Origin: a phage
Reading direction: 5' to 3' (one strand)
Length of the DNA: 851 nt
Sequence record: AB218929.1
Of this stretch, positions 1 through 851 are shown piece after piece. A program made the position numbers and the translations under genes. Numbering within the stretch: position 1 is the first letter of the stretch; each line of letters starts with the position of its first letter. The notes under the pieces were generated by a model. The model made no database searches and was not told the origin of the DNA. It was given only the letters and a program-made list of their open reading frames with translations.

Positions 1-25
1 TTCGAGCTCGGTACCCGGGCGCGCC
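1..25. other. Cloning-vector polylinker (5' flank): tail of EcoRI site, SacI GAGCTC 4-9, KpnI GGTACC 10-15, SmaI/XmaI CCCGGG 14-19, AscI GGCGCGCC 18-25
   Basis: Seen in sequence: ttcgagctcggtacccggg matches the pUC-type MCS order EcoRI-SacI-KpnI-SmaI, followed by an added 8-bp AscI site. Overlapping, tightly packed restriction sites are characteristic of synthetic polylinkers. Confidence 0.9.
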
Positions 26-26
26 G

Positions 27-77
27 CTTCACTTAGCGAATGCATTAGCCTTAATCAACCAACGCCTGAAAAGGTAA
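27..77 (+). CDS. Probable 3' end of the maturation (A) protein gene, partial: last 16 codons (LHLANALALINQRLKR) and TAA stop at 75-77
   Basis: Frame 3 is open from the insert boundary to TAA at 75-77, 16 nt upstream of the coat start. In leviviruses the maturation gene ends shortly before the coat gene. No start codon is present because the fragment is 5'-truncated at the cloning junction. I cannot confirm the peptide from memory, so this is inference from gene order. Confidence 0.35.
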   Translation, partial: LHLANALALINQRLKR

Positions 78-93: not shown

Positions 94-486
94 ATGGCAA
101 CTTTACGCAGTTTCGTACTCGTCGATAATGGCGGTACGGGGAATGTTACTGTCGTTCCTGTTAGCAATGCCAACGGCGTCGCTGAGTGGCTTTCTAATAA
201 CTCGCGCAGTCAAGCTTATCGCGTGACTGCCAGTTATCGTGCGTCAGGCGCGGATAAGCGCAAATACACTATTAAGCTTGAAGTACCGAAAATCGTTACT
301 CAAGTCGTTAATGGTGTTGAGCTGCCCATCTCCGCATGGAAGGCTTACGCCTCTATTGACCTGACCATCCCGATCTTTGCTGCAACCGACGATGTGACTA
401 CTATTTCCAAGTCACTTGCCGGTTTGTTCAAAGTTGGGAACCCTATCGCGGATGCTATCTCTTCTCAGAGTGGCTTCTACGCGTAA
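94..486 (+). CDS. cp: Levivirus capsid (coat) protein, 130 aa, GA/BZ13-like (group II F-specific RNA coliphage); also the translational repressor of the replicase gene
   Basis: ORF from the track: MATLRSFVLVDNGGTGNVTVVPVSNANGVAEWLSNNSRSQAYRVTAS...GNPIADAISSQSGFYA. It aligns by eye along its full length with the MS2 coat protein as I recall it (FVLVDNGGTG, NGVAEW, SNSRSQAY, RKYTIK-EVPK, GVELP, LTIPIFA, GNPI conserved) and is near-identical to the GA coat protein as I recall it. Length about 130 aa, SD upstream, TAA stop at 484-486. Confidence 0.95.
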   Translation: MATLRSFVLVDNGGTGNVTVVPVSNANGVAEWLSNNSRSQAYRVTASYRASGADKRKYTIKLEVPKIVTQVVNGVELPISAWKAYASIDLTIPIFAATDDVTTISKSLAGLFKVGNPIADAISSQSGFYA

Positions 487-677
487 TGGGTCTGAAAGCA
501 AAACATAAGGAAAACCTATGTTCCGATTCACAGAGATCGAAAAGACTCTATGTATGGATCGCACTCGCGATTGTGCTGTCCGATTTCACGTCTATCTTCA
601 GTCATTGGATTTGGGGTCTTCTGATCCTCATTCTCCGGACTTTGATGGACTTGCCTACCTTCGTGATGAATGTTTAA
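486..677 (+). CDS. L: Levivirus lysis protein L, 63 aa, single-gene lysis protein with a basic N-terminus and a C-terminal transmembrane segment
   Basis: ORF from the track: MGLKAKHKENLCSDSQRSKRLYVWIALAIVLSDFTSIFSHWIWGLLILILRTLMDLPTFVMNV. Basic N-terminal part then a hydrophobic stretch. The segment LYVWIALAIVLSDF resembles MS2 L LYVLIFLAIFLSKF, including the conserved Leu-Ser dipeptide. ATG 486-488 overlaps the coat stop TAA 484-486 (TAATG). The gene lies in the +1 frame over the replicase start, as expected for levivirus L. Stop TAA at 675-677. Confidence 0.85.
   Translation: MGLKAKHKENLCSDSQRSKRLYVWIALAIVLSDFTSIFSHWIWGLLILILRTLMDLPTFVMNV
503..521 (+). promoter_or_regulatory. Coat-protein-binding translational operator hairpin (RNA level), GA-type: ACAUA-A-GG-AAAA-CC-UAUGU, containing the replicase start codon
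   Basis: Seen in sequence: acataaggaaaacctatgt folds as a 5-bp lower stem ACAUA/UAUGU, a bulged A (508), a 2-bp upper stem GG/CC and a 4-nt loop AAAA. This parallels the MS2 operator ACAUG-A-GG-AUUA-CC-CAUGU. The replicase AUG (518-520) sits in the 3' arm and the SD-like AAGGA (507-511) in the 5' arm. Confidence 0.85.
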
Positions 678-808: not shown

Positions 809-851
809 TTAATTAAGTCTAGAGTCGACTGTTTAAACCTGCAGGCATGCA
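809..851. other. Cloning-vector polylinker (3' flank): PacI TTAATTAA 809-816, XbaI TCTAGA 818-823, SalI GTCGAC 824-829, PmeI GTTTAAAC 831-838, SbfI/PstI CCTGCAGG 838-845, SphI GCATGC 845-850
   Basis: Seen in sequence: tctagagtcgac...ctgcaggcatgca is the pUC-type XbaI-SalI-PstI-SphI order, with the rare-cutter sites PacI and PmeI inserted. Confidence 0.9.

Follow-up and report, generated by a model that had tools for sequence, protein, structure and literature searches.

The replicase-start hairpin of a cloned group II F-specific RNA coliphage fragment is very probably the natural GA-type translational operator

The closest described counterpart of the hairpin considered here is the operator of phage GA, a stem-loop annotated in the original 1986 GenBank record of that phage (X03869, 1733-1753) as "pot. 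stem loop structure; pot. binding site coat protein". The operator of MS2/R17 (Rfam RF02359; ACAUGAGGAUUACCCAUGU) has a four-nucleotide loop, AUUA, with A at both ends, which covers positions -7 to -4 when the A of the replicase AUG is counted as +1. Its upper stem is GG:CC, an unpaired A lies at -10, the AUG is located in the 3' arm and the Shine-Dalgarno sequence falls within the hairpin. At the replicase start of AVE017 (Emesvirus piscicola), the record of which annotates no lysis gene, a hairpin is found with the loop AAAA, a GG:CC upper stem, an unpaired A and the AUG in the 3' arm. Gott et al. in 1991 reportedly found that the GA coat protein requires A at -4, a purine at -7 and an unpaired purine, that it is indifferent between two positions of the bulge and that it does not demand a pyrimidine at -5. 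Their work and that of Lim et al. in 1994 is said to place the discrimination between the two systems in the base at -5 (A in GA, U in MS2) and not in the whole loop, and to make it one-way, as the MS2 coat rejects the GA site whereas the GA coat accepts both. Lim et al. are also said to have observed that the substitution Asn87Ser gives the MS2 coat a GA-like tolerance of A at -5.

Binding of the GA coat protein has been published, at least as summarised in PMC3561173, which cites Gott et al. (1991) for it and also for the critical A at -4 and the unpaired purine in GA. The same article states the loop and purine requirement for MS2, GA and PRR1 and describes the interaction as repressing replicase synthesis (PMC3561173). 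MS2 coat protein complexes with A at -5 (PDB 2C50) and N87S mutants are listed in PMC10610835. Katz et al. (bioRxiv 10.1101/168625) included the GA wild-type hairpin and the GA coat protein in their in vivo study of repression and describe crosstalk of the MS2 coat protein with that of GA, which agrees with discrimination being incomplete. A full-text literature search, whether for the GA operator or for the sequence of the hairpin, gave no result.

The window, that is, the whole stretch of 851 nt analysed here, is a cloned cassette in which polylinker arms (1-25 and 809-851) surround a 783-nt insert (26-808; Table 1). The arms carry the rare-cutter sites AscI, PacI, PmeI and SbfI, and the insert is placed between AscI and PacI. 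The order of sites is that of what we take to be a pUC-type polylinker with AscI, PacI and PmeI, similar to pNEB193. A PLSDB search with the whole window and with the 43-nt right arm gave no match, and a literature search for pNEB193 together with coliphage returned nothing relevant. Over its full length, the insert is identical to BZ13 DL20 in 96.0%, to BZ13 DL10 in 95.7%, to GA in 95.4% and to T72 and KU1 in about 90% of positions, all five being group II F-specific RNA coliphages (Emesvirus japonicum). Between the insert and the closest genomes there are 31-36 scattered differences (36/783 with GA), mostly at third codon positions and with none inside the hairpin. This pattern looks like that of a natural isolate, represented by an unmodified amplicon without signs of design. 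Judged from its sequence, the record is a plasmid clone of a GA-like group II isolate, in which the coat and lysis genes are intact, the operator is present and the replicase gene is truncated.

Table 1. Features of the 851-nt window, with coordinates counted from its first nucleotide.
Feature	Coordinates	Strand	Basis
Left vector polylinker arm	1-25		Restriction-site scan: SacI 4, KpnI 10, SmaI 14, AscI 18-25; phage match starts at 26
Maturation (A) protein gene, 3' end	26-77	+	Stop TAA 75-77, where the GA maturation CDS also ends (record 1308 = window 77)
Coat protein gene (putative repressor), 130 codons + stop	94-486	+	ORF; Pfam Levi_coat PF01819, E = 1e-37
Long-range helix, coat-gene arm GCUUUC (coat nt 96-101, codons 32-34)	189-194	+	Pairs with 494-499, p = 0.99 in the insert fold
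Stem-loop, "pot. function in lysis gene control" in the GA record	452-476	+	GA X03869 1683-1707
Lysis (L) gene, 63 codons	486-677	+	ORF; Pfam Phage_MS2_lysis, E = 3e-7; lysis CDS annotated at the same place in GA/BZ13
Long-range helix, 3' arm GAAAGC (-24 to -19)	494-499	+	Insert fold; immediately 5' of the operator
Probable translational operator / coat-protein binding hairpin	502-522	+	Folds; identity with GA 1733-1753; Rfam RF02359 alignment; group II invariance; covariation against MS2 and AVE017
Replicase Shine-Dalgarno AGGA	508-511	+	Sequence; 6-nt spacing to AUG 518; extends from the bulge through the upper stem to the first base of the loop
Replicase (beta subunit) gene, truncated to its first 97 codons	518-808	+	Translation; Pfam RNA_replicase_B, E = 3e-23, profile positions 12-92/540; GA replicase CDS starts at the same base
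Right vector polylinker arm	809-851		Restriction-site scan: PacI 809, XbaI 818, SalI 824, PmeI 831, SbfI/PstI 838, SphI 845; phage match stops at 808

The sequence-only reading of this window had proposed a GA-type operator hairpin with an AAAA loop at 503-521, enclosing the replicase AUG and built exactly like that of MS2. The segment 503-521 (ACAUAAGGAAAACCUAUGU) folds on its own as (((((.((....))))))) at -3.3 kcal/mol, with a modest thermodynamic significance of about two standard deviations (z = -2.3; 7 of 200 shuffles fold equally well). The fold of 495-530, which had been suggested as a check, has the same hairpin as its minimum free energy (MFE) structure and adds one further A-U pair, 502-522 (z = -2.0), so the natural extent of the element is 502-522 and slightly exceeds the proposed one. 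In the fold of 480-545, the hairpin is present in the MFE and the centroid structure alike. It is retained in the MFE structures of 440-600, of 400-700, of the segment from the coat start to the insert end, of the insert and of the whole window, with core pair probabilities of 0.94-1.0. The hairpin consists of a lower stem (502-507/517-522), an unpaired A508 (or A507), an upper stem of G509 and G510 with C515 and C516, and the loop A511-A514. Relative to the AUG at 518-520, which lies within the 3' arm, the AAAA loop occupies -7 to -4, so that A at -4 and a purine at -7 are both present, and the Shine-Dalgarno AGGA occupies -10 to -7.

The position of the unpaired purine is degenerate in this hairpin. 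In the MFE structure it is A508 (-10), two base pairs below the loop, and in the alternative register A507 (-11) is left unpaired; U517 pairs with A507 (p = 0.51) or with A508 (p = 0.48), and both registers have -4.2 kcal/mol. The MS2-like architecture that had been claimed is found in the overall structure, which is supported by the RF02359 alignment, but the register of the bulge is ambiguous. The ambiguity between -10 and -11, along with the weaker hairpin (-4.2 kcal/mol for the GA type compared with -6.0 kcal/mol for MS2), results from an A-U pair below the bulge where MS2 has G-C. Besides this, the two operators differ in the loop, where U at -5 and -6 in MS2 is replaced by A in the window. 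They share the adenines at both ends of the loop from -7 to -4, the GG:CC upper stem, the unpaired A at -10, the AUG in the 3' arm and the Shine-Dalgarno sequence within the hairpin, and presumably they work alike. The AVE017 hairpin resembles that of the window in its AAAA loop, GG:CC upper stem, unpaired A and AUG in the 3' arm, but shares with MS2 the G-C pair below the bulge and has one G-U pair in its lower stem. RF02359 was also the top Rfam match in the window, with the same structure line, at 18.1 bits (E = 0.12), a score below the gathering score of 40 bits, which leaves the hairpin outside this narrowly built family though the structure is the same. The low score is explained by the fact that only the hairpin part of the model (positions 16-36 of 36) is aligned, while the MS2-specific 5' flank is unmatched. 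Matches to snoRNA families in Rfam (E = 4-6) were dismissed as chance. The complement of the hairpin on the minus strand also folds (-4.2 kcal/mol), as the complement of any hairpin does, and since it has neither the operator motif nor a gene context it was rejected as a candidate.

The comparison with GA is decisive for the identity of the element. All 21 bases of window 502-522 are identical to the coat protein binding stem-loop annotated at GA 1733-1753, and the hairpin holds the same position relative to the coat stop, the lysis start and the replicase AUG. The clone does not differ from GA in the hairpin; it differs in lying in a plasmid polylinker with a truncated replicase gene. The hairpin proposed from the letters alone is thus the known GA operator, and the suggested comparison with the published GA and MS2 sites came out as expected, with identity to the former and the same structure but a different loop in the latter. 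The hairpin is invariant in six group II genomes and three IMG/VR contigs, the group II sequences considered being 10 in all. The 22 nt around it are unchanged in GA, three BZ13 strains, KU1 and the window, despite insertions just upstream in KU1 and T72. A scan of IMG/VR with ACRTRAGGAAAACCYATGT recovered GA again and three metatranscriptome contigs with the same coat-lysis-replicase arrangement and the same hairpin. Across an alignment of Emesvirus, 92.5% of the cells are paired, compared with 22-50% when the partners are slid. At the pair -11/-1, which adjoins the bulge, group II has A-U where MS2, FrSaffron and AVE017 have G-C, and the lower-stem pair -13/+2 is G-U in AVE017 and A-U elsewhere across Emesvirus. 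The covariation is supportive but statistically weak, since it comprises one fully compensatory pair among five distinct sequences and does not exceed that of shuffles.

The 19-mer ACATAAGGAAAACCTATGT occurs exactly in a contig outside this group (L014, 7377-7395, plus strand), and the same or nearly the same 19-mer is found in two others (L011, 5860-5878, minus strand; L012, 3609-3627, minus strand). These are large DNA-phage contigs (6-37 kb), in which the 19-mer starts an unrelated ORF as a plain arrangement of Shine-Dalgarno, spacer and ATG, with no levivirus genes nearby. About three chance matches of a 19-mer are expected for a collection of that size.

Such matches at ordinary gene starts could be taken to mean that the hairpin binds no protein and is a fortuitous palindrome, made up of a Shine-Dalgarno sequence and a start codon. 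An operator-type motif, defined as an R-N-N-A tetraloop, a 2-bp upper stem, an unpaired purine and a lower stem of at least 5 bp, indeed appears in about 5% of dinucleotide-shuffled windows (one strand). The real window has a single occurrence, at the replicase AUG, and none on the minus strand. The exact identity with the annotated GA site argues that the hairpin is not a product of chance, and so do its invariance in group II while the flanks vary, the compensatory change relative to MS2 and AVE017, the upstream position of a cognate coat gene whose contact residues are conserved, and the binding reported for GA, as cited in PMC3561173. A chance origin is therefore exceedingly improbable. 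We put at about 0.95 the probability that the hairpin at 502-522 belongs to a group II F-specific RNA phage (GA/BZ13 type, Emesvirus japonicum) as its natural translational operator, carried in a cloned AscI-PacI fragment, and nothing in the window contradicts this reading.

An operator of this type requires its coat protein, and the claim that the cognate gene lies upstream in the same cassette proved to be right. The Levi_coat ORF encodes a protein 97-98% identical to the coats of GA (97%) and BZ13 DL20, 72% identical to that of AVE017 and 60% identical to that of MS2, and its match in the PDB is to the GA capsid structures 1GAV/1UNA (E = 1e-78). The positions at which the MS2 coat contacts its RNA are well established from structures. 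Most of these residues are unchanged in the window coat (V29, T45, S47, R49, K57, T59, K61 and Y85), the substitutions being R for K43, K for N55 and Ser for Asn87, the last of them at index 87 within YASIDL, where MS2 has YLNMEL. Since A513 stands at -5 of the loop, both characters that reportedly define the GA-type class are present, and this A and the Ser aligned with Asn87 mark the pair of operator and coat, by these residues, as GA-type. The sequence-only reading had treated AAAA against AUUA as the discriminator. The loop is AAAA as stated, but the discriminating base is reportedly that at -5, and it reportedly discriminates in one direction only. As the AVE017 coat is GA-like (72% identity to the window coat, compared with 60% for MS2) and its operator has the AAAA loop, loop type tracks coat type. 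Compared with reference GA, the coat differs in four residues, namely T59 (A in GA), I79 (G in GA), T103 (V in GA) and D120 (E in GA), in Met-inclusive numbering. T59 restores, at an RNA-contact position, the residue of MS2 and of other group II strains. The exact coat protein sequence was absent from the large protein collection searched, hence the clone appears to derive from an unrecorded isolate.

The structure and position of the hairpin, its identity with GA, its conservation and the cognate coat with its contact residues were established here, and binding and repression are expected from the literature on GA and MS2. In the plus-strand RNA, the Shine-Dalgarno sequence and the AUG of the replicase are sequestered in this stable local hairpin. 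The coat protein encoded at 94-486 would bind it as a dimer, with contacts to the unpaired purine (-10/-11) and to the adenines at -7 and -4 of the loop. The bound coat may stabilise the hairpin and block 30S initiation on the replicase cistron once coat protein accumulates, late in infection. The complex of coat and hairpin, which is regarded as a nucleation or packaging signal in the assembly of the capsid, probably also seeds encapsidation. A second layer of control may be provided by a long-range helix that joins the coat gene to the region immediately upstream of the operator. This GCUUUC/GAAAGC helix is present in all group II relatives. When MS2 was folded by the same procedure, coat nt 94-99 paired with -23 to -18, which is the same position but a different sequence, and in both MS2 and FrSaffron the equivalent positions are paired as GAAUGG/CCAUUC; the helix was not seen in the AVE017 fold. 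The MS2 pairing is presumably the Min Jou interaction, by which translation of the replicase is coupled to that of the coat gene, and the helix predicted in the window looks like its group II counterpart.

The lysis AUG overlaps the coat stop codon (UAAUG). The imperfect stem-loop annotated in GA at the place of 452-476 lies just upstream of this overlap (483-488). The insert fold has a different pairing, of 440-443 with 488-491 and of 447-450 with 480-483, which encloses the coat-stop/lysis-start overlap. The genomes of KU1 and T72 are longer by 18 nt inserted behind the coat stop and by 3 nt inserted ahead of the operator (alignment columns 18-35 and 54-56), which shift the lysis start downstream of the coat stop, without the UAAUG overlap, and leave the operator unchanged. 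A coat dimer on 502-522 might also hinder initiation or reinitiation at the lysis gene, so that one hairpin would serve as a joint timing switch for replicase and lysis. The geometry alone is compatible with coat-mediated control of the lysis gene. The group II lysis gene starts at the coat stop (486), which places the first base of the operator at +17 of its reading frame. However, with the PP7 and Qbeta coat proteins in vivo, repression vanishes for hairpins that start at or beyond +16/+17 (bioRxiv 10.1101/168625). For this reason, coat control of lysis initiation is judged improbable.

The claim that the construct contains a complete autoregulatory repressor-operator pair needs more qualification than the identity of the hairpin. 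Repressor and operator are both present, but "autoregulatory" is imprecise, since the coat represses the replicase cistron and not itself. The replicase frame is cut after codon 97 and remains open through the right polylinker to 851, and promoter-like sites in the window do not exceed chance (1 found, 1.1 expected from shuffles). The lac promoter of pUC19-type vectors would read the other strand, therefore the phage plus strand may not be transcribed. The operator, though natural, may regulate nothing in the plasmid and be a mere passenger in a cloned RT-PCR amplicon made for sequencing, typing, use as a quantification standard or work on coat and lysis. This reading is a rival only to the claim about the construct and leaves the identity of the hairpin untouched. 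Apart from the truncated replicase and the absence of promoters above chance, it is favoured by the insert ends, which are arbitrary points within the maturation and replicase genes, and by the differences from GA/BZ13, which are scattered and lie mostly at third codon positions, in the manner of a natural isolate and not of a design. On the other hand, the vector outside the window could hold a promoter, and an expression or virus-like particle (VLP) construct would be well served by coat and lysis genes that are complete and keep their natural ribosome sites. We give this reading about even odds.

It could also be supposed that the hairpin was kept in the construct mainly for the encapsidation of its own transcript, as in VLP or "armored RNA" production, and not as a switch. 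The coat gene and the hairpin do lie on one transcript-sized fragment, and a role of the operator in specific encapsidation has been suggested (PMC3561173). Nevertheless, the window contains neither a cargo sequence nor a promoter, a VLP producer would hardly want an intact lysis gene, and the fragment looks like unmodified natural sequence. Retention of the hairpin mainly as a packaging signal is thus unlikely.

The hairpin itself is already known, being the GA operator. This operator and the GA coat protein have long been characterised as an RNA-protein pair, which is already in use as a part in synthetic biology, and their presence here carries little weight as a discovery. The practical value of the result lies in a correct annotation of the record. 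Users who express the clone should expect the coat protein to bind the hairpin, and the transcript may possibly be packaged as well.
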